Of a stretch of DNA of 64,000 nt, positions 26,234 through 49,383 are shown in pieces. Made by a program: the position numbers and the translations under genes. Every line of letters begins with the position of its first letter. Within the stretch, counting starts at the first letter, position 1. The stretch spans positions 14,772 through 78,771 of the forward strand of contig CAAGID010000011.1 in assembly GCA_900769815.1 (NCBI GenBank), read 5' to 3'. Source of the stretch: Clostridia bacterium. Lineage in GTDB: Bacteria > Bacillota > Clostridia > Christensenellales > QALW01. The notes under the pieces are model-generated. The model was not told the origin of the DNA, ran no database searches, and worked only from the letters and a program-made list of their open reading frames with translations.

Positions 26234-26782
26234 TTAAATTTTTGCCTGTTTTTTAAATTGTGATAAAACTTTTTTTAAGGGGACTATCATCATTCCGCCT
26301 GCAAGATTTCCTATTGCATGAAGAATATCAAAGGAAAATCCCGCTATAATCCAGGATACCATTCCTTTAAAATCAAGCCCCATTATAAGTGCATGTGCAG
26401 GTGCATACAGAGTTCCGAAAAAAATTCCGTGAAGGGCACAAACAACGGGATAAACTATCCATTGAAGCCACAACGGCATATTTTTTGGCAGGAGCATAAC
26501 GGTCCCCCAAAGAATCGTCCAGATATAAAGATACGGCAAAGACCACAAGCCAAAGCCATTGGTCACAAGCGTTAAAAAAACGTAAATATAAATAGGAATT
26601 AACGCTTTTTTTCTAAAAACAAGAGTATAAATAACTGTAAGCACGCCAACAAGATGTATATTGGGCAACGCCTCCATTAAAATATCGCCCATATACATAA
26701 GAGTACCTAACAATGCAAATACAGTTATTTCCTTAACGGAAAATTTAACCCTTGGTGTAAATAAGTTCATACTGATCGCCAT
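26234..26782 (-). CDS. ECF-transporter S-component-like membrane protein (possible cobalamin-specific CbrT type)
   Basis: ~180 aa with six hydrophobic helices. It lies downstream of a DUF4430 gene and a B12-riboswitch-like leader. The start is uncertain (26782 or 26770) and overlaps the upstream gene. Confidence 0.6.
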   Translation of the reverse strand: MAISMNLFTPRVKFSVKEITVFALLGTLMYMGDILMEALPNIHLVGVLTVIYTLVFRKKALIPIYIYVFLTLVTNGFGLWSLPYLYIWTILWGTVMLLPKNMPLWLQWIVYPVVCALHGIFFGTLYAPAHALIMGLDFKGMVSWIIAGFSFDILHAIGNLAGGMMIVPLKKVLSQFKKQAKI

Positions 26783-27161
26783 CTATAAAATCAGTTGTAT
26801 CAACACCCGACATCATATACTCGCCGTTTTTATTAAAAGACCAATATGCTTTATCAGTGTCGTAATCTGCTTTGATCCCGTTAACAGATTTTATATACAT
26901 ACCGTATTGCTGAATTTCGCCCTCAATAAGAGAATGTTCTGCAAGTGCTTCGCCTACAGTTTTCTTATCTGTTTTAATGGTAAACGTTACTTTTTTATCT
27001 TCCGCTTGAACAAGAATAATAAGCGTTCTCGCACCGTTACCAAAAACGGTATCTTCGGTATATTTGGCATTATCCCAAAGAGATTCCTGTTTTTTCTGGC
27101 AAGCTGTAAACAACAGTAACATAACAAGTAACAGAGTAACAATTTTTTTGAGATCTTTCAT
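26745..27161 (-). CDS. DUF4430-like lipoprotein (transcobalamin beta-domain-like)
   Basis: Start reset to MKDLKKIVTLLLVMLLLFTAC (lipobox), preceded by GGAGG. C-terminal pattern YWSFNKNGEYMMSGVDTTDFIDGDQYELIY. Confidence 0.7.
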   Translation of the reverse strand: MKDLKKIVTLLLVMLLLFTACQKKQESLWDNAKYTEDTVFGNGARTLIILVQAEDKKVTFTIKTDKKTVGEALAEHSLIEGEIQQYGMYIKSVNGIKADYDTDKAYWSFNKNGEYMMSGVDTTDFIDGDQYELIYTKG

Positions 27162-27199
27162 AATTTTTCCTCCAATTCCTTTTTCACGAAAAGAAGAAA

Positions 27200-27400
27200 G
27201 CAAAAAAGCACGCCTTCTATAGAAAGACGTGCCGATAAAAAGTACCCTGCAATACCCTCGCAACGTCCTTCAATTGCCCAAGGATGTTATTTGCAAAAAT
27301 CACAAGCCGATAAGCATTCCGACTTTTACGGTAATGGCTGTTGTCACGGAATTACACCGCAGTTCCCTTAACATCTTGCAGAAAAAATCTGTTCAATAGC
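27200..27400 (-). ncRNA. cobalamin-riboswitch-like leader with terminator expression platform
   Basis: Minus strand contains TTAAGGGAA..GGTGTAATTCCG..CAACAGCC..ACCGTAA..AGTCGGAATGC, resembling the conserved core and B12 box. It is followed by hairpin GCACGTCTTTCTATAGAAGGCGTGC and then TTTTTTG. Confidence 0.6.
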
Positions 27401-32456: not shown

Positions 32457-32466
32457 TTCTTCTATA

Positions 32467-32496
32467 TTGACATTTATGTATGTAATAGGATATAAT
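32467..32496 (+). promoter_or_regulatory. candidate sigma-A promoter of the pqqD-like operon
   Basis: TTGACA (32467-32472), 18 nt, TATAAT (32491-32496). Confidence 0.6.
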
Positions 32497-32527
32497 AAAA
32501 ATATATTATATTTTTAAGGAGTATTTT

Positions 32528-32788
32528 GTGAAAATAAAAGACAGTTTTATTTTACGAAGCATCGCAGGAATAAATACAGTTATTTCCACCGCCCCATCAT
32601 CAGGTTTTGACGGTATGATAACCCTTAACGAAACAGGCGTTTTTATGTGGAACGTGCTTAAAAACGGTGCAACTGTAGATGAACTTATAAATGCGGTAAT
32701 TGCAGAATATGATATCGACAAAGAAATCGCTTCTGCTGACTGCAATGAGTTTATTGAAAAATTACAGTCAATTAACGTGTTTGAGTAA
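32528..32788 (+). CDS. PqqD-family protein (RiPP recognition element-like)
   Basis: 86 aa. [47 protein letters not shown] is the typical PqqD/RRE winged-helix pattern. GTG start, 6 nt after AGGAG. Confidence 0.8.
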
Positions 32789-32804
32789 TAGCAAGGAGAA
32801 AATT

Positions 32805-33695
32805 ATGAGTAAAAAAACAAAAGGTATAATTTTAGCAGGCGGAAAAGGTACTCGTCTTTACCCAATGACAAAAGTAATTTCAAAGCAGTTGTTGCCTATT
32901 TACGACAAGCCGCTTATTTACTATCCCCTCTCAATTCTTTTACTTGCAGGAATTGATGAAGTTCTTATTATTTCAACTCCCGACGACACTCCCCTTTATA
33001 AGCGCCTTTTAGGCGATGGCTCACGTTTAGGTATTTCCATATCATACGCCGTACAAGACCAACCTAGGGGTCTTGCAGATGCTTTTATAATCGGCGAAAA
33101 ATTCATTGATAAAGATAACGTTTGCCTTGTTTTAGGCGATAACGTTTTCTATGGTCAAAATTTTTCACAGCTTCTTTATAAGGCAAAAGAGCTTGAAGAG
33201 GGTGCAACAATTTTTGGTTATCCTGTTTCAGACCCAAGAGCATTTGGTGTTGTTGAATTTGATGAAAATAACAAGGTTATTTCAATTGAAGAAAAACCAC
33301 AGAATCCCAAGAGCAATTATGCTGTTCCCGGTTTATATTTCTACGACAACAGGGTTGTTGAAATTGCAAAGAACGTGAAGCCTTCGGCTCGTGGTGAAAT
33401 TGAAATTACATCAATTAACAATGCTTACCGTGAAAAAAGCGAACTTAACGTTATTCTTATGGGTCGCGGTATGGCTTGGCTCGATACAGGTACGCCTGAA
33501 GGTATGCTTACTGCTTCAAACTATGTGCACGCTATACAATCACTTCAAGGCTTTTATATTTCTTGCATTGAAGAAATTGCTTGGCGTAGAGGTTTTATTA
33601 CCGCAGAACAGCTTTATGAATTAGGTAAGGAAACTCAGACTACTGACTACGGCAAATATATTATGGACCTTGCAGAGAGGAATATTAAAGCTTAA
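32805..33695 (+). CDS. rfbA: glucose-1-phosphate thymidylyltransferase
   Basis: [37 protein letters not shown] and the rest of the length are strongly RmlA-like. Start reset to the ATG at 32805, which follows AAGGAG. Confidence 0.92.
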
Positions 33696-34394
33696 ATGAG
33701 TACATATTCTATTGCAGAATTAACAGTTAATATGGAGCCATTTGGTAAAACCGTTGTTCAGGCGGAAAAATATCTTATCGCTCCTAAAGAATCTGCAGAT
33801 ATTACACTTACGTATAGTATAGATAATATGAAACACTATCTTGCACATCATCCTGAAATTTCTGAAGAAAGTTACGTTTATATGCTTTTAGGAAAGAAAT
33901 TTGCAGAATGTTTGTTAGATTATGACGGTCTTGTACTTCATTCTTCTGCCATAGCATATGAAAATAAGGCATATTTGTTTTCTGCTGATTCAGGCACCGG
34001 TAAATCAACGCATACTAGCTTTTGGACAAAGTGTTTTGACGGTGCAGAGGTAATAAACGACGATAAGCCTGCCTTAAGACTGATGGACGGTATTTTCTAT
34101 GCATACGGTACTCCTTGGAGCGGTTCAACACCAATAAATCTTAACGTAAAAGTTCCCTTGCAGGCAATATGCTTTATTGAGCGTGCCGACAAAAATTCTA
34201 TTGAACGAATTACCGATAATGCTGAAATTATAAAGCTTTTTATGCCGCAAACGTTAAGACATGTTGGTAACGACAAAGCCGAAAAACTTATGCTTAATCT
34301 GGAAAAACTTATAAGCAATATTCCGTTCTATAAATTACGTTGTCTTCCCAACGAAGATGCCGCAAAATTAGCATATGAAATTATGTCAAAATAA
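33696..34394 (+). CDS. HPr-kinase-like P-loop protein (HprK-related kinase family)
   Basis: LVLHSSAIAYENKAYLFSADSGTGKSTHTS..NDDKPALR resembles the HprK C-terminal domain P-loop region. Its start abuts the rfbA stop (TAAATG). Confidence 0.6.
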   Translation: MSTYSIAELTVNMEPFGKTVVQAEKYLIAPKESADITLTYSIDNMKHYLAHHPEISEESYVYMLLGKKFAECLLDYDGLVLHSSAIAYENKAYLFSADSGTGKSTHTSFWTKCFDGAEVINDDKPALRLMDGIFYAYGTPWSGSTPINLNVKVPLQAICFIERADKNSIERITDNAEIIKLFMPQTLRHVGNDKAEKLMLNLEKLISNIPFYKLRCLPNEDAAKLAYEIMSK

Positions 34395-34396
34395 GT

Positions 34397-34421
34397 GATA
34401 CCCGAAAGGGTATCTTTTTTT
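34397..34421 (+). terminator. rho-independent terminator
   Basis: GATACCC-GAAA-GGGTATC followed by TTTTTTT. Confidence 0.85.
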
Positions 34422-34487
34422 CACACATTTTGACGATTCGGAATAATATATATAGAGAAAGTCAAGAATTGTTTTGAGGTGATATTT

Positions 34488-34649
34488 ATGATTAAATGCT
34501 GTATTTGTGATAAAGAAAAAAAGGAGCATATAACCGTTTTAGGAAAGGCCATATGCTCAGACTGTGAATGGAAAATATTAACCGAAAAAACACATTCTGT
34601 CGGTTATAATAAGTGTATTTCAAAATTAAAAAATATTTTCTCAACATAA
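34488..34649 (+). CDS. unannotated 53-aa Cys-rich protein, Gin/CsfB-like (anti-sigma-G)
   Basis: My own translation reads MIKCCICDKEKKEHITVLGKAICSDCEWKILTEKTHSVGYNKCISKLKNIFST. The CxxC..n..CxxC layout and the Y..n..LK.I tail resemble B. subtilis CsfB. GAGGTG sits 7 nt upstream. Confidence 0.65.
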   Translation: MIKCCICDKEKKEHITVLGKAICSDCEWKILTEKTHSVGYNKCISKLKNIFST

Positions 34650-34685
34650 AAAGCCGAGCAAATCGCTCGGCTTTTCATTTTTTTA
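34647..34685. terminator. bidirectional terminator
   Basis: AAGCCGAGC-AAATC-GCTCGGCTT with T tracts on both strands. It closes both the gin-like ORF and the large minus-strand operon. Confidence 0.85.
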
Positions 34686-35726
34686 CTAGCCAACCATACC
34701 TGAACGTTCAATACTCTGAACAAAGAACTTCTGACAAAAGCAGTAAAGAATAATGATAGGCGTTATATGCATTACCGTACACGCTGACTGATATAATGAG
34801 TTAAGAACTACGTCTCCGGGTTTATCAAGAACACTGACTACATACTTTGAACCCATGTCTACAATCTGTGTCGCCATAACTTTGGCGCTGGGGTTAAGCA
34901 TTGAGATATAGTTTCTGTCATTATACTGCCATACGAATGCAAACAAGAAAACTGTCACAAGCATAGGCAACGCGCTGGGGAGCATAACCTGAACGAAGGT
35001 TCTGAAAGGTCCTGCACCGTCAATATATGCAGCCTCTTCAAGCTCTTTGGGCTGGTTAACGAAATACTGACGGAGAAGGAATACGAATAAACCATTACGA
35101 TACATTGTTGCCGTTGCAGACAAAAGACCGATAGCAGTCCAACCACGTGTAAGATCAATATTGGGGATTGTTTTAAGTTGATCACCAAAAGAGAACATAT
35201 ACAAGGGGTTAAATGCCTGATATCTGAATCTCATAGCTTCAGTAAGCATCTGAATGGGCACCATCAAAGTAAAGATACACATAAGGAAGATGAAGTTGTT
35301 GCCCTTAAACTTAAATCTTGCAAGACCATAAGCAACTACCATACATGAGCACATCTGGAAAAGTGCAAACACAAATGAAGTTGTAAAAGAACTGAGATAA
35401 AGCTGTGGAATTTTTGCAAACTGCCACATAGCAATATAGTTGTTAACGTTTATAGCCGTGGGCACAAGAATAACTGTAGGATCGTAAACGTCCTGTTGTG
35501 ACATAAATGACGTAATAATCGTCAACAAAATAGGATAAACAACAAGATAACAAATACCAACAAGCAGCACTGTTCTCATTATTGCCCAAATAAAATTGAA
35601 TGTACGTTTACCAAATAAGGCACGCTTGAACTTCTGCCAAGGCGTAAGTGTAGGGATGACAAAGCTATCAACTTCTTCAGCGCCTACTTCGTTTGTAAGC
35701 TTAATTTTATCAAGTTTTTCCATCAT
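34686..35726 (-). CDS. carbohydrate ABC permease (MalG-like) of second pair, with extended N-terminus
   Basis: EAA loop LEEAAYIDGAGPFRTFVQVMLP. Start set at MMEKL, which follows GGGGGTGGAG. Confidence 0.8.
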   Translation of the reverse strand: MMEKLDKIKLTNEVGAEEVDSFVIPTLTPWQKFKRALFGKRTFNFIWAIMRTVLLVGICYLVVYPILLTIITSFMSQQDVYDPTVILVPTAINVNNYIAMWQFAKIPQLYLSSFTTSFVFALFQMCSCMVVAYGLARFKFKGNNFIFLMCIFTLMVPIQMLTEAMRFRYQAFNPLYMFSFGDQLKTIPNIDLTRGWTAIGLLSATATMYRNGLFVFLLRQYFVNQPKELEEAAYIDGAGPFRTFVQVMLPSALPMLVTVFLFAFVWQYNDRNYISMLNPSAKVMATQIVDMGSKYVVSVLDKPGDVVLNSLYQSACTVMHITPIIILYCFCQKFFVQSIERSGMVG

Positions 35727-35736
35727 CTCCACCCCC

Positions 35737-36627
35737 TTAGTTCTCATAGTAAACAAGCTTTGATATAATTCCTGCAACGGCAGCAATTACCACTGTTGTC
35801 ATCAGGAAATACATCCAGCCCATTGCCATACGGTCATAAGTTTCAACAACTGCAGGAGAGTTAATATACTCTAAAACCGGGTTTGTTGTTGAGCAAAGGT
35901 TTTCAATCATAATATAAACTGTGTTAACAAGAATCATTGGGCTTATCATCGGGAAGGTTATCTTCCAGAAGTTTTCCCAACCTGTAGCACCTTCAACCTT
36001 TGATGATTCAAAGATTGAGGGTGAAATAGTCTGAAGTCCCGCAAGGAAGATAAGCGTAGGAACACCTGCACCATTTATGATTCCGCTAAGTTTATCAAAT
36101 GCCGTACCGATAAATTGGCCAAAGGTACCGCCGATAGACTCTTGAATATTTCCTGCAAGGTTCATTGCCTGAGAACCAACTGATTCCATCTGACCTGCAT
36201 CAACACCAGTTTCGCCTGCAAGTAATAATGCTGCAACACCGGCAGAAGTAATAACAGGCATAAATAATACTGCACGGACAAATGTTCTTCCACGGAAGTT
36301 TTGGTTAAGAACGTTAGCCATTAGGAAACTGAATATCAATATGCAGGGAACAGTAATTATCATATCTGAACCTGCAGCAATAAGTGCATTGATATAGTCT
36401 GCCTGATTTTTATAAGCATCTACATATGCCTTAAAGCCATAAGGCTCAATATTGATAACATTTGTAACACTATTGAAAACCTGATCGTTAAAAGACAGAA
36501 CAAGTGCCGTGTAAAGAGGTGATATAACAAAGAATATAAAACCTAAAATGAAAGGAAGCACAAAAAGCCATCCTGACAAAGAACGTCTTGTCATCAAACC
36601 TAATTTATAACTTCTTGGTTTTTTCAT
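35737..36627 (-). CDS. carbohydrate ABC permease (MalF-like) of second pair
   Basis: N-terminus RRSLSGWLFVLPFILGFIFFVISP. EAA-type loop ESSKVEGATGWENFWKITFP. Confidence 0.8.
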   Translation of the reverse strand: MKKPRSYKLGLMTRRSLSGWLFVLPFILGFIFFVISPLYTALVLSFNDQVFNSVTNVINIEPYGFKAYVDAYKNQADYINALIAAGSDMIITVPCILIFSFLMANVLNQNFRGRTFVRAVLFMPVITSAGVAALLLAGETGVDAGQMESVGSQAMNLAGNIQESIGGTFGQFIGTAFDKLSGIINGAGVPTLIFLAGLQTISPSIFESSKVEGATGWENFWKITFPMISPMILVNTVYIMIENLCSTTNPVLEYINSPAVVETYDRMAMGWMYFLMTTVVIAAVAGIISKLVYYEN

Positions 36628-39488
36628 TAGTTATTTCCCCCTTTCGAAAAAGATTCTGCTTTTACAACTGTACCGTCTTCAGCAGTATAGTCAACTGAAT
36701 TGTAGTTTACATAAACAACTGTACCGTTTTCATATGTTACTTTATTTACATTTTCAGCTACATTTTCATGTTCAATAATAAATGAGCCTGCAGTTGATGA
36801 AAGAAGATCATTATATTCCTTATACATCTTAACTGCCTCATCGAACCAAGAACCGTAATGTAATGAGTACATACCTTCAAACCAAAGGTCCTGAACCGCA
36901 TCGTTAGTTTCATAGCACCAACGATAGTAAATGCCCGAACCTGCTTCAACTGCCTGAAGGAATGACTGACGGGTATCACCGTAAAGGTTGATGGGATCGC
37001 CTGAGTATTCAACACAGCCGTGAATTACCATCTGATAGAAGGGAACTGATAAATCGGCTAAGTTAAACTTACTACTCGTATTGCTGATTTCAAAAATTTC
37101 ATCAACGTAAGGAAGCATATAGGCGTTTGTTCCTTTTGCCATTACGTTAAGATTTTGGCCATAAATCTCTGCAACCTTTGCGTAAGTAACAGCAACCTCT
37201 CCCCTGTCTCTTAAATCTTTAACCTTATAGTTTCCGGGAAGATTATAGCCCAGGCTTCCAAGGCTTATGCCTTTAATATTAAGCTCGTTAATGTCTTCAA
37301 GAAGCTTTAATGAGAAGCACTTTGAATTATCATCACTGTAAATATCATAAATCTTTGTAGGTGAAACAATAGATGCTCTATTTTGCTCTGCTGCTGTGTT
37401 CCAGTCATCCCAATACTGATAGTGATATGCAACCTCACGGGTTACAAGACGGGATGCATCTGTAAACTCACTATATCCATCAAACATAGCCGAATTATAA
37501 ACGAAAGCAAGCTCTGTTTCAAAATAAAGATTCATTCCTAAAGATTCGGCCTTTGAAAGTAAGTTATTAAGTCCATCCTTACCGCCAAGCTCTTTTAACA
37601 CCTTAGCTCTATTAAATGCAGTGTTTCTTAAACCGTTATTTGCCCAGCCTTTGTAGTTAACTGAAACATTTTTGATTCCATTTTCGTTAAGCTTATCTAA
37701 AAGTTCTCCGCACTGTTCAAATGTTGTAATAGCCTTTGTTTCAGTATAAGGAATTCCTAAGAAAGCCGTTTTATGGTCATATGCACCAACAAGCTCGATA
37801 TTAAATGGAATTTCTGTATAATTCTTTTTAGTAAGAACGTTCTTTGAAATAAGATAGTCTCTGTAATACTGAGCCATTCCGCTATAATTTGCTTTATTGC
37901 CTTCAAGTAATGCAAATGTAACTGAGATATCATCAGTATTCATTTCTTTCTGATAAATACGTGCTGTTTTACCTGCATTCTTAAATTGAACTTCCTCGTA
38001 TTCAGTCATCCTAAATCTTGAATAACATCTGTTACGATCAACAATGTTCTTATTCTTTCCTGCAATATCAGCAATAATTGTTGCGTTTGTGTCTCCTGAT
38101 TCGATTATAGCAAACATAGCACTTTCGGCACGCTTGATGCCAAATACGGGAAGATATGCACCTTCATTAGCAAAAGGCTTCTGCAACGTCTCGCGTCCGT
38201 CATCAAGACCATAAAGTTGAACACGAACGTCACTTGTTATATTTGTTTTACCATTGTTAAAGTTAACGATAGCACCTGAACCATCAGGAACAAACATATA
38301 GCCTTCTTCTTTTTCAGAAGCAGATCCAAAGTACTTAAGAAGATCAATGGTTGCTATTGCAAGATTTTCTTTATCGTACTGAATTTCATTGCTGGAAATC
38401 GAAACGTTTAAACCATTTTCAGTAAGCTGATAGTCAACGGGAATCCAGAATGTTTTTGCAGCTTCACTAACAAAACCAAACTGCTCGTTGATTTCATCAC
38501 GCTGCTCAAGCGTCATTCCTGCAATGTTAATGAATGCATCTTCAATAACTCGCATAAAACGTGAGTTATTCCACTTTGTCTGGTCCTTGATAACATAAAC
38601 TGTCTTACCGTCGTTCAAAAGCTCTTCCATTTTGGGAGCAACTGCAAGATATTCGTTTTTCTTATCAGGCGTCCAACTCTTCCAGCTTGAAGGAGTAACC
38701 TTTGCATAAAGAGTACCCTTTGTAATATAGCCTGATGAAATAATATCGCCTGCATCTTTGAACTTCTGAGCAATCTCTTCAGCCATTTCACCTTCCATAC
38801 AAGTAGGAACAACGTAGTCAGGTTTAATGAGACCTAAAATGTAAATTACACGAAGATGTCCTTCATGATTAACCACATAGAACTGTTCTTTACCGTTTTC
38901 GGGATCCGAAATAAGAACACAGTCTGTATAGCTTTCAAGAGTTTTCTGACTTCCGTCAGCCTTGTTAAGATAGAAGATTGAAAGCTGACTTGCCATTTCG
39001 CCGGGAAGACCGGCGGATTTTTCAGCGGGAGCAGGGTTTGAGTACCAAACCTGACCGCTGGATTTGCTCTTTAATGCAAACTCAAGGTATTCCTCATTGA
39101 AATAAAATTCATAGTTTTCATTTTCTTCAACGAACTTGTAAACAGTTTCTTTAAGAGCAACCTGATCTGTAGATTCAGTATTTTCCTCTTTAGTATCAGT
39201 TGTTACCTCTGTATTTTCAAGTGTTTCAACTGTTGCATCTGCATTTTCAGGTGCTTCAGTAACAGTTTCGTCTGTTACAGTATCATTTTTCTCATTAAAA
39301 ACGTCACGTTTTTCAGTATAAACATCCTGACGAATATGAGGGGGCTTTTCATCAGAAAACTGGAAAAGCGGCTCTTTATTTGTAGGAGTAATATAACTGC
39401 TTGTAGTTTTATCTGCACATCCGGTAAATGCTATCGTCGGAAGGATAATCATTATAACGAGTAAGGCAGAAAGTATTTTCTTTTTCAT
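36627..39488 (-). CDS. ~950-aa surface lipoprotein, putative glycoside-hydrolase-like (possibly DUF5696 family)
   Basis: Lipobox IAFTG-C follows MKKKILSALLVIMIILPT. There is an acidic linker. The C-terminal half has TIM-barrel-like alternation (NVSVNYKGWANNGL..., VPFYQMVIHG). The family name is from memory only. Confidence 0.55.
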   Translation of the reverse strand: MKKKILSALLVIMIILPTIAFTGCADKTTSSYITPTNKEPLFQFSDEKPPHIRQDVYTEKRDVFNEKNDTVTDETVTEAPENADATVETLENTEVTTDTKEENTESTDQVALKETVYKFVEENENYEFYFNEEYLEFALKSKSSGQVWYSNPAPAEKSAGLPGEMASQLSIFYLNKADGSQKTLESYTDCVLISDPENGKEQFYVVNHEGHLRVIYILGLIKPDYVVPTCMEGEMAEEIAQKFKDAGDIISSGYITKGTLYAKVTPSSWKSWTPDKKNEYLAVAPKMEELLNDGKTVYVIKDQTKWNNSRFMRVIEDAFINIAGMTLEQRDEINEQFGFVSEAAKTFWIPVDYQLTENGLNVSISSNEIQYDKENLAIATIDLLKYFGSASEKEEGYMFVPDGSGAIVNFNNGKTNITSDVRVQLYGLDDGRETLQKPFANEGAYLPVFGIKRAESAMFAIIESGDTNATIIADIAGKNKNIVDRNRCYSRFRMTEYEEVQFKNAGKTARIYQKEMNTDDISVTFALLEGNKANYSGMAQYYRDYLISKNVLTKKNYTEIPFNIELVGAYDHKTAFLGIPYTETKAITTFEQCGELLDKLNENGIKNVSVNYKGWANNGLRNTAFNRAKVLKELGGKDGLNNLLSKAESLGMNLYFETELAFVYNSAMFDGYSEFTDASRLVTREVAYHYQYWDDWNTAAEQNRASIVSPTKIYDIYSDDNSKCFSLKLLEDINELNIKGISLGSLGYNLPGNYKVKDLRDRGEVAVTYAKVAEIYGQNLNVMAKGTNAYMLPYVDEIFEISNTSSKFNLADLSVPFYQMVIHGCVEYSGDPINLYGDTRQSFLQAVEAGSGIYYRWCYETNDAVQDLWFEGMYSLHYGSWFDEAVKMYKEYNDLLSSTAGSFIIEHENVAENVNKVTYENGTVVYVNYNSVDYTAEDGTVVKAESFSKGGNN

Positions 39489-39502
39489 ATTTTCCACCTC
39501 CA

Positions 39503-40144
39503 TTACCTTCTGAGCTCAAGTTCAAGATATATTGTATAGATAAAGTTCCATATTTCCTGAACAAGGAAGAAAAACAACATACCTAAGAACACGATAATAA
39601 CCATACCTAAAAGTATAGCAAGTAATATAAGGAACGTTTTACCGCCGCTATACTGGTGAGTCGTCATAGTACCTGTATAAAGCAGTATACCGGTCCAGCC
39701 ATATCCAACAACCGTAACAAGAGTTACAATAGTAGCCTCGTTAACAGTAAGAACATTGGTAAGCGGAAGAAGTATAATTTGTGAAAGGACAAGAGGTAAC
39801 ATTGAATATCCCGTATAAAGGAATACGTCCTTCATACTTCCTTCGCCATCAAAAAGTGTTGTAAGACCCCAGTTTGCTGCAACCCAAATAACTACAACAA
39901 GTGCTGTTGTTACAAAGCTTCCTACAATATTGATACGTTCCGGAAATACCTTTAACTCGTTAAAAGTGTAGTTGTTAAACTGACTATTAAGAATTCCCGT
40001 TAAAACGTATAATATAAGGAATATTACGGCTATATAGCCTCTGCCACGCTTTTCATGCTTTAAATCCCAGAAACCATCAAGAGGATGAGTTATAACATGG
40101 AAAGCATATTTTAGGTCTGCTCCGAATTTTTTAAGCAATTCCAT
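39503..40144 (-). CDS. Yip1-domain polytopic membrane protein
   Basis: N-terminus LKYAFHVITHPLDGFWDLKHEKRG followed by five hydrophobic helices, matching the bacterial YIP1-family layout. Confidence 0.65.
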   Translation of the reverse strand: MELLKKFGADLKYAFHVITHPLDGFWDLKHEKRGRGYIAVIFLILYVLTGILNSQFNNYTFNELKVFPERINIVGSFVTTALVVVIWVAANWGLTTLFDGEGSMKDVFLYTGYSMLPLVLSQIILLPLTNVLTVNEATIVTLVTVVGYGWTGILLYTGTMTTHQYSGGKTFLILLAILLGMVIIVFLGMLFFFLVQEIWNFIYTIYLELELRR

Positions 40145-41930: not shown

Positions 41931-42776
41931 TTAATCTTTCATACCTGACGTTGCCATTGTCTCGATGATGTTACTCTGCGAAATAATGAACGCTGTGATG
42001 GGAACCGCCATCATAATAACTGTAACTGCGTTGGCAACACCTTGACGTGCAATACCTGTTGAAACAATTTGTTGAAGTGCATAAGGAAGAGTTTTTAAAG
42101 ATTCACTCTGAATAAACACTGATGCACCTAAGTTCCAAAGCCCCTGAACTGAGAATATCATAAGTGTAAGCCAAGCTGACTTAACCTGAGGCATAACGAT
42201 TGACCAGAATATCTTAAAACTTCCTGCGCCGTCAATACGGGCTGCTTCAACAAGTGACCTGGGAATCTGCGACATAAACTGTTGCATAAGATACATGCCC
42301 ATAGGAGAAGCAAATGTGGGAATGATAATTGCCCAATATGTATCGATCATACCAAGTCCTGCCTTGATGATAAAAAGAGGAAGCCAAAGAACTGTTCCGT
42401 TAAACATAAGTGCCAATCTAATGATATTTGAGATAGACTTACTTCCAGGGAAAGTGTACATAGCAAGAGGATATGCACATAAAGAACACAAAACAATCTG
42501 ACCAAAGGTACCAACTGTGGTAATAAACACGGTATTAAATAAATATCTTGAGAAGGGTACCCAGGAATTTCCCATTAAAACAAACAAATCGGTATAGTTT
42601 GTTGTTATCCATCTTTTAGGTAATAACGTAGGCGGGAATTTAAATAATTCGTCCATAGGCTTAAAGGAGTTACCTACTGCATAAACCATAGGAAGAACCA
42701 TGAAGCAAGCAACTATGCAAAGGAATAAAATTCCTAAAATGTTACCTGCATTTGAACGGTTAACTTTCTTTGCCAT
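41931..42776 (-). CDS. carbohydrate ABC permease (MalG-like) of first pair
   Basis: EAA loop LVEAARIDGAGSFKIFWSIVMP. Confidence 0.88.
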   Translation of the reverse strand: MAKKVNRSNAGNILGILFLCIVACFMVLPMVYAVGNSFKPMDELFKFPPTLLPKRWITTNYTDLFVLMGNSWVPFSRYLFNTVFITTVGTFGQIVLCSLCAYPLAMYTFPGSKSISNIIRLALMFNGTVLWLPLFIIKAGLGMIDTYWAIIIPTFASPMGMYLMQQFMSQIPRSLVEAARIDGAGSFKIFWSIVMPQVKSAWLTLMIFSVQGLWNLGASVFIQSESLKTLPYALQQIVSTGIARQGVANAVTVIMMAVPITAFIISQSNIIETMATSGMKD

Positions 42777-42779
42777 AAA

Positions 42780-43721
42780 TTACTCACCCACCTTTGAAAG
42801 CATTTTTGCAATTAACTTATTAGCAACAATTTGTAACAAGAACAAAAGAACTGCTATTGCACAAGCATAACCAAGTTCCATTCTCTGGTTTGCATAGTCC
42901 TCAAGGTGATGCATAAGTGTATGAGCAACATAGTCCTGTGAAGGATAACCTACAAGCGCAGTAATTGCAGCGCCAACTGAGAATGCGCCAGAAATACTCA
43001 TAACAGCACCGAATAAAAGCTGAGGCTTCATATAAGGTAAGGTAATATACCAAAGTTCCTGCCATCTGTTCTTAACACCGTCAATAGCACCTGCTTCATA
43101 TAACGTGCGGTCAACGTTCTGAAGACCTGCAACGAAGGTAAGGAAACTAGTACCCAATGACGACCATAGAATAACTATCAAGCAACACGGCACAATATAG
43201 TCAACATTTTCAAGCCATTTAATGTTAGACATCGTAATACCTGTATTCATAAGGAAACCATTAAGAAGACCATATTGGTCAGATGAGAAGATAATCTTCC
43301 AAACAGGATAAACGCTGGCAAGTGAAGGTGCGTAATAGAAAAGAGTCATAACTGCTCTTGTTCTTCTGCCGAGCTCATTGATAAGCCAAGCAAAGAACAA
43401 TGACATTATGTAACCGCCGGGGCCGATAATAACTGCAAAGAATAAGGTATTCTTAAATGCGGTCATAAACAAATCATCGGCAGTAAAAAGACGGATATAG
43501 TTATTGAAACCAGTCCACTGGGGAGGCTCAAGTACGTTAAAGTACGTAAATGAGAAATACATTGCAACTATAACGGGAAGAATTGTAAAGGTTGCAAATA
43601 TTATAAGATAAGGAAGCATGAATAAATATAAACTGCCATTTTTACGCATTTCTTTAAACTGATATTTGAGCCAATCCTTAAAGAATGCTTTGTTTTTGGC
43701 TTTAGTCTCACTTTTAGCCAT
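42780..43721 (-). CDS. carbohydrate ABC permease (MalF-like) of first pair
   Basis: EAA loop LYEAGAIDGVKNRWQELWYITLP. Six TM segments. Confidence 0.88.
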   Translation of the reverse strand: MAKSETKAKNKAFFKDWLKYQFKEMRKNGSLYLFMLPYLIIFATFTILPVIVAMYFSFTYFNVLEPPQWTGFNNYIRLFTADDLFMTAFKNTLFFAVIIGPGGYIMSLFFAWLINELGRRTRAVMTLFYYAPSLASVYPVWKIIFSSDQYGLLNGFLMNTGITMSNIKWLENVDYIVPCCLIVILWSSLGTSFLTFVAGLQNVDRTLYEAGAIDGVKNRWQELWYITLPYMKPQLLFGAVMSISGAFSVGAAITALVGYPSQDYVAHTLMHHLEDYANQRMELGYACAIAVLLFLLQIVANKLIAKMLSKVGE

Positions 43722-46700
43722 TATTCTACCGCCTTTCCTGTCATTTGCTCGATCTTCTTCTTGAATTCTTCACGTTTACGATCGATTTCTCTGTCAATTT
43801 TGCTTACATATTCAATAAACGTTGTATTGGGGTCTGTACCGGGATTATTAATAACTTCTTTCCAAGCAAACTCAATGTTACGTGCAGTATAATAACCGCC
43901 GGGAACCTGAGGAATAGCTTTGCAATGCTTCCACTGCTCCTGAATCATTACCATTGACTGCTTATCCCAAGGAAGCTTTGCCATTGCCTTAAGGTTTGCG
44001 GTCTGATAACGAGCTGCAGGACCAAGCAAGCTTTCGATTTCAGTACCGAAACGATACTGTGCATCTTCGCCAGTCCACCACTTTATAAACTCCCAAGCAC
44101 GCTTAATTCTGTTTCTTCCCTCTTCTGTTGAAGAATCTATAGAAAGCATTACACAAGCTGAAGTTGTGCTTGCACATGAGTGATCAACAACAACTTTACC
44201 GTTTTCATCATAAATAACATTGCCATCAGCATCCTTCTGAACTGTACCGGGAACAAGGGAGAACTCCCAAAGGCCCTGAATTTCAGGAGCAAATACTGCA
44301 AGCTGTGAATACTGACTGTAACTTGCAATACCTATCGGAACTTCACCTGTACGGAAACGGTTAGCAAAATCATATGTATTGGGTAAGTTATATAATGTAT
44401 AGAATTCTGTCCATTCCTTAAATGCATCAAGAGCTGCATCCGAATTAAGGTCTGTTGAATCTCTGTCCTCAGTATAATACTGACCGCCCTTCTGATAAAG
44501 AAGTGTAGCAAAAGTGTTATTACCTGAACCAACTGCACCTACAACAGGAACAGGCATCGCAAAGGTCATCTGCTGATTCTGAAGGTGCCCAATTATATTA
44601 TATACTTCATCCCAAGTCTGAGGAGCTTCAAGTCCAAGTTCTTCAAGAATATCTGTACGGTAGAAGGTCATAAAGAAATCCTGTGTCTCAGGAACACCAT
44701 AGATACCATTACCAAAGGTAAAGGGATCAACAGCACTGTGAGCAAAACGTTCAGAATTGAGAAGAAATTCCTCGTAATCAGGGAAAAGTTCTTTATCTGC
44801 AAGATTCATAACTGCACCGCGGAACGCATAGTTAATAGCATCAACTGCACCGCGTGACAAGCATATTTCTGGTCCGATTCCTGACAAAACAGACGGCAAT
44901 AGTGAGCCGCTGGCAACAAGACGGGTACTTACTACAATTCCTGTTTCTTTAGTAAACATATCATCAATAAGCTGTTTAAGAATTGTCGCATTATCTCGTG
45001 AGCCTGTAAGACCCGCGCCTGTTTCAAGCCATACCACAACGGGTTCCTGACCATCTTCGGCAACCGTACCGCCGATGTTATCGTAGTCTTCTGTAAATGA
45101 AGCTATAAATGCACGGATTTCATGAAGCATCTTTGCAAAGAAGCTTGCATCAGGGTTAGGCATACCGTTACCGTTAACTGTATCTTCCGTGGTAACTACG
45201 AAGTAGTCAAGTTCCAAAGGATTCTGGCTCATATCGTTAATCCATGTACCCATAGAAGCGATAGAGTCTTTAAGGTTTGAGAACAATGAAGGTACAACGT
45301 TATGGTCAATCTGAAGAATCTTTATAAAATTCTCTCTTTCTTTTTCGGTCAATTCATTTGCAGCGAACTTCTTCTCGATAAAAGCTACCATTGTCTCGAT
45401 ATTCTCAAGTTCGTCATCAGTAACATCACCAAAACGAAGTTTAATAGCATTTTCAAACTCGGCAACAGAATCTTTTTTAATCATTCTTTGAAGAAGAAGC
45501 AATGTGCTGTCAAGACTTGTAAGCTGTGCGCTGATTTCTTTACCATACTCTTCCATCATTTTGTTTTTTAGATTCAAAAGATTGTAATATTCTTTTTCAA
45601 GAAGATCAAGTGCGTCAGGAACCATAGCATCAAGCATATAGCTCTTGTTTACGTCAGGCGAGGCGCTTGTAATCATAAGAATTCTTCTGTAAGCGTAATT
45701 AAGCTGAGTGAGGCTGTTTTCCGCATCTGCAAGGAAATCACCCATCTTGCCTAAAGTTGATTCAAGACGAATTGTATTTTTTCCTTCGTTAAGATAGAAA
45801 AGAATTGTTTCGCCGTCTTCAGTTTTAGGCGTATACATCTTAAAGCTGTTTCCATATTCAAAAACAAGATTATTAACTTCAGCACAAGGAACAACACCGT
45901 TAACGGTAAGCTTACGTGTTGTACTTAAACCGCTTAAAGTATTCTGACGTGCCTTAAAGCTGATAGCATAAAGACCAGCTTTCTCAACGGTAAAAGACCA
46001 CTCAATCCAATCATTAGGAGCCTGCCATTTATCAGCACCGATTGTGTTATAACGAATCTTTGCATGATGATAAGGAACCGTTGAAGGAGATGACCTATCA
46101 GTAATAGCGTACAATGTAGGTGATGATTTAAGAGTATTAAATGTAGGATCCTTAGTTGCATCATATGCAGTTTGATCCATAGGACTTATATAATTATTGT
46201 ATGCATTAACATCGGCAAAGAAAGCCTGCTTATCTAAGAAAGCCTCAGGTGCATGTAAACCTTCAGCCTGAATGATAATCTCACATTCGCCTGTAACCTT
46301 CTCATAACCATTTGCCTCATATTCCTTTTTTAACTCAGAATAAGGCATCGCTGATTTGATCTGATGAAGCATGGCATACTCAACAATCATACCTTCTTTT
46401 ATTGCTTCGAAAGCAAGAACATGTTTACCTGCTTCAAGGTAGAATTTGAAAGGTTCACTTTCATATCCCATATAATCACGAGCCGAAACAGTCTGCCACT
46501 GACCTGTTCCACTCTGATACGGACGCTTTTCATTGCCGGTCTGAGGATCAATTATAAGAAGACCAGAATCCTTCCATACACGCTCAAGGTTTATCTGACG
46601 TGCTTCATAAAAGGGAACTTTGTAATCAATATAAACTCTACGTTGTACTGCCGAACTGTTACAATTAACAGTAATCTGTTCACCGTCTTTTTCATAAGTT

Positions 46701-47182
46701 AAATTTTCATAAGCATAGTATGAGAAGGTAAGATTATACCAACCGGATGTTTCAACGTCAACTACCCAGCCGCAGATTCCTTCATCATAAAATAAAGCAC
46801 CATCTCTCGCATCAGATAAATGTTCTGATGATACGTTTACCATAGGAAGGCTTCCTATGATTTCGCCTGTTTTAGGATCAAACTGAACGGCATCTTTACC
46901 CTCCAATTTAATTTCAACGTCAGGCATAGCAGTATCAATTACGGAAGATTGATACGTTTTATAGTCAAACGTATTGCTGATTGCCTCATCAAAAGCAGTT
47001 GCCTCAGGCAATCCCTTCTTTTCACCGCTCTCATCTTGTGTTGTGCTTTCTTCTGTTACATCTGTAGCAACTTCCTGATTAAGAGTATCTTCGGGAGCAG
47101 CATAAGCTACGCATGAAAATACCGAAATTGCCATTGATGCCACAAGAACAAAAATAAGCACCTTGTTTCGCAAAGACTTCAT
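43721..47182 (-). CDS. 1153-aa secreted protein: two CBM-like modules + helical region + CUT1-type solute-binding domain
   Basis: Signal peptide. Two modules share the pattern G(W/L)YN/A(L/I)(T/S)F ... YL(E/N)(A/E)GK(H/N)..(L/I), typical of beta-sandwich CBMs. The C-terminal ~460 aa are SBP-like ([33 protein letters not shown]). Confidence 0.75.
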   Translation of the reverse strand: [1153 protein letters not shown]

Positions 47183-47284
47183 GTTATTCCTCCTGAATGC
47201 TAAATTAAATCTGTAAAACTTGGAAACAGCCCCTTATATAATAATGAGTATGTTTTTTACAGACTGATACATATTATCTACCCT

Positions 47285-47580: not shown

Positions 47581-49368
47581 ATGAAGACACTTAAGCGACT
47601 TTTTTCATACTATGTTCCTTACCTGGGTATCATGATTCTTTATCTGTTTATGGGCGCTTTGATGGTTTCCCTGGCAATGCTATTGCCTCAGATCACAAAG
47701 CACATAACAGGTTCAGTTATTCTTGATGCCCCTTTTTCGTTTTTTGGTTGGTCGCCCTCAAAGGAACAGCTTTTTCTTGCACTTGCTTCATTGTGGATGT
47801 TTATCGTTATAATAAGACAAGGTATTGCATATCTGCGTTCTTATCTTATGACCAGAGCTTCCATAAAAGCCGTTTGCAAAATGCGTGAAGATATTTTTGA
47901 CAGGCTCTTATGGCAGTCGGTTTCCTTTATTCAAAAGGAAAATACGGGAAATATTCTGACCATTCTCAGTGGCGACGTTGAAATGATAAAGCTCTTTTTC
48001 ACAAGTACTTTGCCAGCAATAATTGAAGCTGTTTTTGGTTTTATTTTTGCAAGTGTAATGATTTGGCAAATGAGTCCTTTAATGGTTATTACCGCCTACG
48101 TATTTACTGTTCCTTTGTTTATCATATCAAAGCGAATGAGCAAGATATTCTCAAAGTGGTATCATTTCGTACGTGAAACAAGTGCCGATTTAAGTATGGT
48201 AACTCAAGAAAATATCAATGGTATAAGAATTGTTAAAGCCTACGCACAAGAAGAACAAGAAAAGAAAAAATTTGCAGAGAAAAACGCGAATTACAGATAT
48301 CACGCAATAAATTATATGGTATATTGGTGTCGCGAATATCTGCCATTTGGTATTGTGAGCCATCTTCCCAATATTACTCTCACTCTTATCGCCGCTTTAT
48401 TGGTTGTTAACAGTAATAACGGTGCTGTAGGCAGTTTTACTATGACTCTTCCTGAATTTATAGCTGTAACAGGTTATATCAGTTATATTCTTGTCCCCTT
48501 TACACAGGCAAACAACTGGATAAACAACGCTCAACAAGCTGTAACAAGTGCTGAAAAAGTTTTTAAAGTGCTTAATATTGGTTCAGATATAGCTTCAAAA
48601 CCCAATGCAATAAAACCTGATATAACTAAAGTAGACCTTAAATTAACCAACGTATCATTTTCACTTGAAGGCAAGAAAATTCTCAATAACATAAACATTG
48701 ATTTGCCACAGGGAAAGACTCTGGGTATAATAGGTACCACCGGCAGCGGTAAGACAATTCTTACAAATATTATGGCACGCTTTTTTGACGTTTCATCAGG
48801 TAAAGTTACTATAAACGGCGTAAACGTTAAAGATATGGATTTAACCACCCTTCGCTCGTGTTTTTCTCCTGTTTTACAAGACGTCTTCTTATTCTCCGAT
48901 ACCATTGCAAAAAATATTGCTTTCGGTCGTCCCAACGCAACATATGAAGATGTGATGAAGTGTGCAGAAGTTGCTCAAGCACACGATTTTATAAGTAAAA
49001 TGCCTGATGAATACAATACCATTGTCGGCGAACGCGGAATGGGTCTTTCCGGTGGACAAAAGCAAAGAATTTCCATTGCTCGTGCACTTTTATACAACTC
49101 CCCTATTCTTGTTTTTGACGATGCAACAAGTGCTCTTGATATGGAGACGGAACAGCTTCTTTATAAACGTCTTAAAGAAGAATATTCAAAGCAGAGCCGT
49201 ATAATTATTGCCCACAGAATTTCATCAGTAAAGGACTGTGATGAAATCATTGTTATTGAAAAAGGCAGTATTATTGAACGAGGCACACACCAGGAGCTTG
49301 TTGATAAAAAAGGTCGCTATTATGAGACTTACAAAGAACAGTATTCAACTGTCCTTAACTCATTGTAA
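47581..49368 (+). CDS. ABC exporter half-transporter (heterodimer subunit 1)
   Basis: Six-TM domain followed by an NBD (GTTGSGKT, LSGGQKQR, ILVFDDATSALD). Confidence 0.9.
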   Translation: MKTLKRLFSYYVPYLGIMILYLFMGALMVSLAMLLPQITKHITGSVILDAPFSFFGWSPSKEQLFLALASLWMFIVIIRQGIAYLRSYLMTRASIKAVCKMREDIFDRLLWQSVSFIQKENTGNILTILSGDVEMIKLFFTSTLPAIIEAVFGFIFASVMIWQMSPLMVITAYVFTVPLFIISKRMSKIFSKWYHFVRETSADLSMVTQENINGIRIVKAYAQEEQEKKKFAEKNANYRYHAINYMVYWCREYLPFGIVSHLPNITLTLIAALLVVNSNNGAVGSFTMTLPEFIAVTGYISYILVPFTQANNWINNAQQAVTSAEKVFKVLNIGSDIASKPNAIKPDITKVDLKLTNVSFSLEGKKILNNINIDLPQGKTLGIIGTTGSGKTILTNIMARFFDVSSGKVTINGVNVKDMDLTTLRSCFSPVLQDVFLFSDTIAKNIAFGRPNATYEDVMKCAEVAQAHDFISKMPDEYNTIVGERGMGLSGGQKQRISIARALLYNSPILVFDDATSALDMETEQLLYKRLKEEYSKQSRIIIAHRISSVKDCDEIIVIEKGSIIERGTHQELVDKKGRYYETYKEQYSTVLNSL

Positions 49369-49383
49369 AGGAGGTGGCAATAT

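Follow-up and report, generated by a model that had tools for sequence, protein, structure and literature searches.

An operon for a putative RiPP recognition element, RfbA and a predicted HprK-family kinase in Clostridia: a probable reduced relative of linear polyphosphorylated peptide clusters

We examined a three-gene operon (32467-34421, plus strand) in a 64,000-nucleotide stretch of the genome of a Clostridia bacterium (GCA_900769815.1, contig CAAGID010000011.1, positions 14,772 to 78,771), a stretch called the window throughout. Its genes encode a small PqqD-family protein, which appears to be a recognition element (RRE) for peptides made on the ribosome and then modified after translation (RiPPs), a glucose-1-phosphate thymidylyltransferase (RfbA, also RmlA), and a predicted P-loop kinase related to HprK. 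Comparison with related loci shows an operon that is, by its gene content and by the company its relatives keep, homologous to and evidently descended from a cluster of the linear polyphosphorylated peptide (LPP) type. The reading that we favor, and consider probable, is that the operon is a lineage-specific, reduced RiPP cluster of this type, still active as a module that would recognize and phosphorylate a peptide whose gene lies elsewhere, while RfbA would supply a sugar modification.

LPP clusters have been described from Paenibacillus alginolyticus and other Bacilli (Popov et al., Nat Commun, May 2026, PMC13381572). They comprise genes for a precursor with a YxxP leader (lppA), an HprK-like kinase (lppK), a discrete RRE (lppB), a SipW-like leader peptidase (lppS), an MsbA-like exporter (lppD) and an NTP_transf_5 protein (lppN), and the order lppA-K-B-S-D-N has been shown experimentally to yield polyphosphorylated linear peptides. 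LppK attaches multiple phosphates to core residue Ser3 and LppS cuts off the leader, while LppN was inactive in the heterologous host, for which an external partner that makes a rare substrate or adds a prerequisite modification was proposed (PMC13381572). The clusters often lie inside capsular polysaccharide loci and those of the Bacilli are co-regulated with exopolysaccharide genes (PMC13381572). The same paper mentions neither rfbA nor the Clostridia.

The three proteins of the operon

The 86-residue product of the first gene (32528-32788, plus strand, GTG start), which is lppB-like, matches Pfam PqqD with an E value of 2.7e-15 (56.9 bits vs a cutoff of 23.4), and the NCBIfam models for lasso-peptide PqqD chaperones match it at 6e-9 and 2e-7, below their own cutoffs. 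Among PDB sequences, it matches the lasso RRE TbiB1 (5v1u) at 5.6e-5 and, weakly, LppB (9x8z) and PbaB1 (9x90). In the alignment to LppB, which is weak (E 0.19), the leader-contacting residues N33, Y60, D70 and F74 of LppB fall on N34, Y61, D71 and F75 of the window protein. LppB D70 hydrogen-bonds the leader tyrosine (PMC13381572), and the window protein retains the family consensus, including the equivalent of this aspartate. The protein thus has the features of a discrete RRE of the lasso-B1/LppB type, with the residues expected for a Tyr-type leader, and the PqqD-like assignment previously made by inspection of the sequence agrees with these profile matches.

The third gene (33696-34394, plus strand), which is lppK-like, encodes 232 residues that include a P-loop (SADSGTGKST, residues 96-105, 33981-34010, plus strand) and an Asn-Asp-Asp triplet (residues 121-123, 34056-34064, plus strand). 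The invariant positions in our alignment of the family (alignment A1) are H82, S84, G100, G102, K103, S104, T105 and N121-D122-D123, and the motifs LHSSA, SGxGKSTH and NDD are invariant across twenty homologues. The NCBIfam matches are weak: TIGR04249 (ScmC) at 7e-6, TIGR04352 (HprK-related kinase A) at 0.0025 and TIGR04355 at 0.054. These are the same three models that are assigned to the kinase of LPP clusters, in which the peptidase is assigned to TIGR02228 and the NTP transferase to NTP_transf_5 (Supplementary Data 2 of PMC13381572). No match to Pfam Hpr_kinase_C was obtained at E <= 1, and the ScmC family label PF27840 is taken from the precomputed Pfam annotation of homologues, not from a direct Pfam match of the 232-residue protein itself.

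The AlphaFold2 model of the protein (pLDDT 93.7) has as its top Foldseek matches the HprK/P structures 1kkm, 1kkl and 1jb1 (E 2.5e-5 to 3e-5, prob 1.0), with PEPCK next, and so displays the HprK/P-PEPCK P-loop kinase fold, with modest TM-scores of 0.3-0.5 against these folds. A profile of the family built from alignment A1 found no PDB sequence at E <= 1, so the tie to HprK and PEPCK comes solely from the fold comparison. On this model and the weak TIGR04249 and TIGR04352 matches, the protein is predicted to be an HprK-family P-loop kinase homologue, and the HprK-type homology that the sequence-only reading had suspected from the P-loop is detectable. In the lasso-peptide kinase PsmK, the D158A/D159A mutant is inactive, and D158 and D159 are predicted to bind metal (PMC6993621); judging by the position of the motif, the aspartate pair of NDD probably corresponds to these two residues. 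Literature searches for ScmC and SynChlorMet by name returned unrelated acronyms only, and searches by Pfam accession returned nothing.

A kinase position that varies among the homologues is residue 144 of the window protein (34125-34127). In alignment A1, most homologues have WSGK after an invariant GTP. The window protein, most of its closest group (the crown group, below) and loci L010, L012 and L090 have WSGS, L005 has WSGT, and the lysine is retained in L014, L088 and L089. The change does not track cleanly with loss of either the precursor or the peptidase.

Between these two genes lies rfbA (32805-33695, plus strand), encoding 296 residues. The protein scores 462.6 bits against TIGR01207 (rmlA; cutoff 360.65) and matches the RmlA crystal structure 1lvw over residues 5-294 (E 1.4e-129), and it is 80-94% identical to the RfbA of nine other loci in the clade described below. 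The equivalog-level score and the full-length match leave it as the canonical, full-length glucose-1-phosphate thymidylyltransferase that it had been taken for. The suggestion, made at the same time, that the enzyme might transfer a nucleotidyl group directly to a peptide is unsupported, because the enzyme is fully canonical. It is as full-length and high-scoring a member of the family as the RmlA of an rmlABCD pathway, but its gene stands alone between RiPP-type genes, with the kinase gene directly 3', and inspection of the window, its flanks and the Pfam-annotated syntenic loci showed no rmlB, rmlC or rmlD.

A clade of loci with embedded rfbA

The order of the three genes is not a chance juxtaposition, a possibility that had to be considered for a single locus. 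Thirteen loci (the window, L005-L012, L014 and L088-L090) are monophyletic in neighbor-joining trees of both the kinase and RfbA, and the two trees are broadly congruent. The kinases of this clade range from 77% down to 47% identity with the window kinase. All 13 loci have the order PqqD-(S24)-RfbA-kinase, where S24 denotes a peptidase gene discussed below, and the rfbA stop codon abuts or overlaps the kinase start wherever gene coordinates in the clade were read. The unit is found in at least four upstream contexts (ileS-methyltransferase-rluA, tgt-yajC, an SNF transporter, and rhaA/TspO), and no rfbB, rfbC or rfbD is present in the Pfam-annotated neighborhoods of the clade. By these comparisons rfbA is shown to be a stable and co-inherited internal member of the operon in this clade.

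Five deeper-branching members of the clade have a divergently transcribed precursor-like open reading frame (ORF) directly 5' of the RRE gene, and in these the YxxP-leader precursor of LPP clusters is present. That of L012, on the minus strand in a 410-bp gap 5' of the RRE gene, reads MKKIYSKPEVEVVELLNGAVFTDFEDGGDFDGPDVVESGA, starting MKKIYSKPEVEV...; that of L014 (6082-6192) begins MKGYVKPEVKV...; and that of L088, 38 residues long in a gap of about 510 bp, reads MKKQYTSPEVEV... The ORFs of L089 (MRKDYSKPELEK...) and L090 (MKKKYLNPEIDI...) complete the set. L088 also has a TTGACA ... TATAAT pair at the position equivalent to the window promoter.

The fullest cluster of the clade is L014:976-8690. 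On the strand opposite the kinase it carries the precursor, an APH-family kinase, an NTP_transferase, an NTP_transf_5 protein and a PGM/PMM gene, and on the kinase strand PqqD, the S24-like peptidase, RfbA and the kinase. With PGM acting before RfbA, the route from glucose-6-phosphate to dTDP-glucose is complete, and the APH-family kinase is possibly a sugar kinase. A whole sugar-activation set is thus built into an LPP-like cluster at this locus.

Loss of the precursor in the crown group

Seven loci (the window, L006, L007, L008, L009, L011 and L005) form a monophyletic crown group within the clade. The loci with no precursor in cis are exactly these seven and L010, which lacks a precursor separately. 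In the window, the intergenic region between rluA and the RRE gene is 71 bp long (32457-32527) and holds no precursor gene by sequence or by a hidden Markov model (HMM) of the leader, compared with the 410 bp and approximately 510 bp of L012 and L088. The distribution argues for a single loss of the cis precursor at the base of the crown group. The absence of a precursor is a secondary state: sister lineages with the same operon carry, immediately 5', a divergent precursor gene of the form YxxPE[IV].

Since that presumed loss, the crown-group kinases have diverged to 55-60% identity, yet the RRE and kinase ORFs are intact in 7/7 loci, and the group keeps all of the invariant kinase residues and the leader-contacting residues of the RRE. 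Estimates of dN/dS by NG86, which are rough because dS is saturated (>1) in all comparisons, were 0.04 for PqqD, 0.04 for RfbA and 0.13 for the kinase between the window and L006, and 0.04, 0.006 and 0.07 between L006 and L007, with RRE and kinase values of about 0.04-0.25 across the group. All three genes of the crown group look to be under purifying selection.

The wider Clostridial family

The 232-residue protein has more than 7,800 homologues in the databases. We examined 84 non-redundant loci, mostly from species-representative Clostridia genomes, with a six-frame HMM scan, and counted neighbors within 6 kb of the kinase homologue at the 74 loci outside the RfbA clade. A PqqD protein is a neighbor at 56/74, an S24-like peptidase of about 155 residues at 48/74, an ABC exporter at 21/74, an NTP_transf_5 protein at 16/74, a precursor-like ORF at 15/74 and a Wzz/CpsC-like gene at 12/74, while rfbA is found at none (0/74). 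The best model for the S24-like peptidase is the archaeal-type/SipW signal peptidase I, TIGR02228. In the fullest clusters the genes stand in the order precursor, kinase, RRE, peptidase, exporter, NTP transferase, which is the order lppA-K-B-S-D-N.

Many of these loci have a small ORF upstream of the kinase gene that has the pattern MKK.Y..PEIEI..F.VEDII.[TA].S and then an acidic tail. For most of the precursor-like ORFs, the distance to the kinase gene is about 150-450 bp. A profile of them collected 204 database proteins at E <= 0.01, and those with names are called only 'hypothetical'. A complete LPP-like cluster (precursor, kinase, RRE, SipW-like peptidase, ABC exporter and NTP_transf_5) occurs in Acetivibrio cellulolyticus (L001:7707-12310), and complete clusters occur in many other loci as well, for example L017, L026, L042 and L051.

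Chain-length-determinant genes of the Wzz/CpsC type were observed a few kilobases from the kinase-RRE-peptidase genes in L019, L025, L026, L037, L044, L049, L050, L066, L077, L083 and L084; the HMM mostly matches two adjacent genes. These neighbors echo the embedding of the Bacilli LPP clusters in capsular polysaccharide loci.

Two ideas that arose from these neighborhoods were rejected. Large proteins encoded upstream of some kinase homologues (Flg_new and FIVAR proteins of 866-2548 residues) were considered as substrates, and none has an N-terminal YxxP. RfbA was considered as a replacement for the NTP_transf_5 protein, which would make the two mutually exclusive; the counts (1/10 vs 16/74, Fisher p = 0.68) do not bear this out, and L014 has both.

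The operon in its surroundings

The sequence-only reading had described a self-contained operon of three genes with its own promoter and terminator, and every element of it was found in place. A sigma-70-type promoter (TTGACA-18-TATAAT, 32467-32496, plus strand) matches the consensus at 12/12 positions; by our own estimate from base composition, about 0.007 such perfect promoters would be expected by chance in this 3.5 kb. An AAGGAG ribosome-binding site lies between the promoter and the GTG start at 32528. The three genes follow almost without spacing, the kinase ATG being directly 3' of the rfbA TAA, and they end in an intrinsic terminator (34397-34421, plus strand) with a 7-bp GC-rich stem and a 4-nt loop (hairpin 34397-34414) followed by a T-run. 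No PADLOC match was found for any of the three proteins, and a role in a defense system was set aside.

The other genes of an LPP cluster were sought in the 64-kb window and about 20 kb of flanking sequence. In agreement with the earlier impression that no precursor is visible near the trio, no precursor-like ORF was found in either, by tblastn, motif scan and leader HMM in the window. Nor was there a convincing homologue of the S24-like peptidase, which corresponds to LppS, or an NTP_transf_5 gene, which corresponds to LppN, in the window (by tblastn) or the flanks. One weak S24 match (47162-47275, 41 residues, E 0.003) falls within a 1153-residue minus-strand ORF (43721-47182) and is not a separate peptidase gene. 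The sole ABC exporters of the window (47581-51186) lie 13 kb away, and we discounted them as the LppD of the operon as they are a generic exporter pair unlinked to it. No rfbB, rfbC, rfbD, lasso cyclase or radical SAM gene was seen by eye in the list of window ORFs, for which no window-wide Pfam search was run, and the precomputed Pfam annotation of the syntenic loci L005 and L088 shows none up to about 8 kb from the trio. The 10-kb flanks beyond the window have no RiPP or rml-pathway gene; a generic DUF512/Radical_SAM_2 gene lies about 5 kb past the right end.

On the 5' side, the operon is preceded by ileS and by genes for an S-adenosylmethionine-dependent methyltransferase and a pseudouridine synthase of the rluA type. 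On the 3' side, it is followed by a separately terminated gin/csfB homologue and then by sugar ABC permease genes on the opposite strand. With a G+C content of 37.5%, the window looks like core chromosome from a metagenome-assembled genome (MAG) of a spore-forming member of the Clostridia.

The Gin/CsfB homologue (34479-34649, plus strand, Pfam 1.7e-8) is an inhibitor of sigma-G by family, has its own terminator (34649-34675) and indicates an endospore-forming host. The gene adjoins the trio, outside the operon, in most of the clade members in which the downstream region was read. We considered Gin as a substrate of the kinase and rejected it: it lacks a YxxP motif, shows no conservation at its C-terminus and also adjoins the trio in relatives with true precursors.

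Further from the operon, an AdoCbl-II (cobalamin) riboswitch (27304-27384, minus strand, 42.5 bits vs a gathering score of 36.5) lies 5' of the minus-strand genes 26745-27263 and 26234-26782; in the syntenic locus L005, a DUF4430 gene stands at the corresponding position 5' of ileS. The minus strand also encodes two secreted proteins of large size, 958 and 1153 residues (36627-39503 and 43721-47182). Sugar-ABC permease genes form a pair with each of them (34686-36627 and 41931-43721), and the syntenic counterpart of the 958-residue gene carries DUF5696. The pairing suggests glycan-uptake loci beside the operon.

Function of the operon and alternative explanations

Set beside an LPP cluster, the window operon has the discrete PqqD RRE with conserved leader-contacting residues and the HprK-like kinase matching the same three TIGR models. 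Its relatives share the gene set and order, including the SipW-like peptidase, ABC exporter and NTP_transf_5 protein, and their precursors have the YxxP leader with a conserved downstream serine; an association with polysaccharide genes is common to both. The operon differs from LPP clusters in having no lppA, lppS, lppD or lppN, in the rfbA embedded within it, and in belonging to a Clostridia MAG lineage rather than to the Bacilli.

If the operon is a reduced cluster of this kind, its RRE would bind a leader of the YxxP type on a small acidic peptide whose gene now lies elsewhere in the genome, and the kinase would phosphorylate, probably repeatedly, a serine a few residues past the leader. 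LppK acts on core Ser3 (PMC13381572), while PsmK and PadeK act on a C-terminal serine (PMC6993621). RfbA may raise the local supply of dTDP-glucose, and an enzyme outside the operon could then draw on it to modify the phosphopeptide or else an associated glycan of the cell envelope; the case for a part of RfbA in peptide modification comes down to its embedding, the start/stop coupling and its co-inheritance. Because there is no dedicated peptidase or exporter, the product may be handled by general processing and export machinery, or it may stay cell-associated. The initial proposal of a stand-alone module that recognizes and phosphorylates its substrate holds in part: the RRE and HprK-like kinase homologies and the conserved gene order speak for it, but the nearest known system is the LPP cluster, and neither lasso-peptide tailoring nor the uncharacterized TIGRFAM kinase system to which it had been compared. 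For this genome, the most parsimonious view is action on a peptide encoded elsewhere, also part of that proposal.

Several observations weigh against this interpretation. The window itself offers no precursor, and the search for one covered the window and its flanks rather than the whole genome; neither is there, within the window, a glycosyltransferase or an LppN that could use dTDP-glucose on a peptide. The pairwise similarity of the RRE to LppB is weak, the dN/dS values are rough, and the leader spacing of the Clostridial precursors (Px6F...S) is not that of the Bacilli (Px9Fx[T/A]). Since the spacing differs and sequence similarity is low, the Clostridial clusters constitute a distinct subfamily, and this kinase/RRE subfamily is known from sequences alone. 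As for RfbA, it is entirely canonical, and in the Bacilli rmlA occurs in 5/126 LPP neighborhoods, apparently beside rfbB, rfbC and rfbD in polysaccharide loci, so that rfbA could be a hitch-hiker here too.

Taken further, that last point leads to a housekeeping rfbA with passengers, in which RfbA, the one product of physiological importance, would make dTDP-glucose for a rhamnose-type wall polysaccharide, and the RRE and kinase would be leftovers of an eroded LPP cluster, formerly part of a polysaccharide locus, with no substrate at present. None of the genes for a precursor, peptidase, exporter and NTP_transf_5 protein is present in the window, RfbA is the most conserved of the three proteins (80-98% identical in the pairs compared) as well as canonical, and LPP clusters typically sit in capsular polysaccharide loci, with rml genes in some neighborhoods. 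We nevertheless think this explanation unlikely, as relics would not be expected to stay intact in seven crown loci, at low dN/dS and with catalytic and leader-contacting residues kept, while the kinases diverged to the extent described above. The long retention of the pair after a single loss of the cis precursor could instead reflect exaptation, the RRE-kinase pair now targeting a non-RiPP protein or regulating the synthesis of dTDP-sugars or envelope glycans, with an enzyme or a carrier as a possible target of phosphorylation. The tight coupling of the rfbA and kinase genes, the Wzz/CpsC-type genes in the wider family and the co-regulation of Bacilli LPP clusters with exopolysaccharide genes (PMC13381572) would all fit. 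However, the residues of the RRE that bind YxxP, including the Tyr-bonding aspartate, have been kept, which points to a ligand of the same kind as before, and none of the kinase homologues has beside it a candidate protein with YxxP near the N-terminus. We also regard such a switch as improbable.

HprK-like kinases and NTP transferases decorate lasso peptides of Firmicutes (PMC6993621), and the sequence-only reading had suggested tailoring in trans of a lasso peptide of the paeninodin or pseudomycoidin type, with the core cluster elsewhere. The resemblance is real: PadeK and PsmK are RRE-guided HprK-family kinases that (poly)phosphorylate a serine of a ribosomal peptide, the paired aspartates are of the kind essential in PsmK (D158/D159), a nucleotidyltransferase-type enzyme (PsmN) is tied to hexose addition on the phosphate (PMC6993621), and the best PDB and NCBIfam matches of the window RRE are lasso B1 proteins. 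On the other hand, neither the window nor the recurrent neighbor clusters of the kinase in the 84 related loci yielded a lasso cyclase (C, Asn-synthetase-like) or a B2 protease (transglutaminase-like), in a survey made without cyclase or B2 models. The window enzyme is a sugar-1-phosphate thymidylyltransferase (PF00483) and not a member of the PsmN family (PF14907), the nearest precursor-bearing relatives are LPP-like with a SipW-like peptidase, and the RREs of LPP and paeninodin systems form distinct groups that discriminate their cognate leaders (PMC13381572). We consider lasso tailoring very unlikely.

The SynChlorMet proteins ScmC and ScmD (TIGR04249 and TIGR04248; PF27840) offer another comparison, as ScmC is the best profile for the 232-residue protein and the PqqD-like partner is placed as ScmD is. 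The scores, however, are far under the equivalog cutoffs (25.5 vs 125 bits and 24.5 vs 100), and the SynChlorMet cassette includes radical SAM/SPASM partners, which were not seen near the window operon.

Implications

Returning to the reduced LPP-type cluster that we favor, rfbA inside an RRE-kinase operon is a testable candidate for the missing LPP chemistry, namely a dTDP-hexose-dependent decoration of the phosphate. L014 adds to this a PGM, an APH-family kinase and a second nucleotidyltransferase beside a precursor and an LppN. A bolder version would make RfbA an integral step of the phosphopeptide pathway, with a sugar or sugar-phosphate derived from dTDP-glucose extending the Ser-phosphate, and with the crown-group trio freed from its precursor to modify a peptide in trans or a cell-envelope protein. 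We offer this as a speculation with little chance of being correct, but, if it were true, the donor for LppN/PsmN-type decoration would have been identified.

LPP-like clusters and their precursors are common in Clostridia MAGs, where they carry no annotation, and many of these MAGs come from samples of animal gut and rumen; the published Bacilli-centered definition of LPP clusters is too narrow. The crown group shows in addition that an RRE and a kinase can be retained together, apparently by purifying selection, once their cis precursor has been lost, which bears on genome-mining rules that demand a precursor gene nearby.

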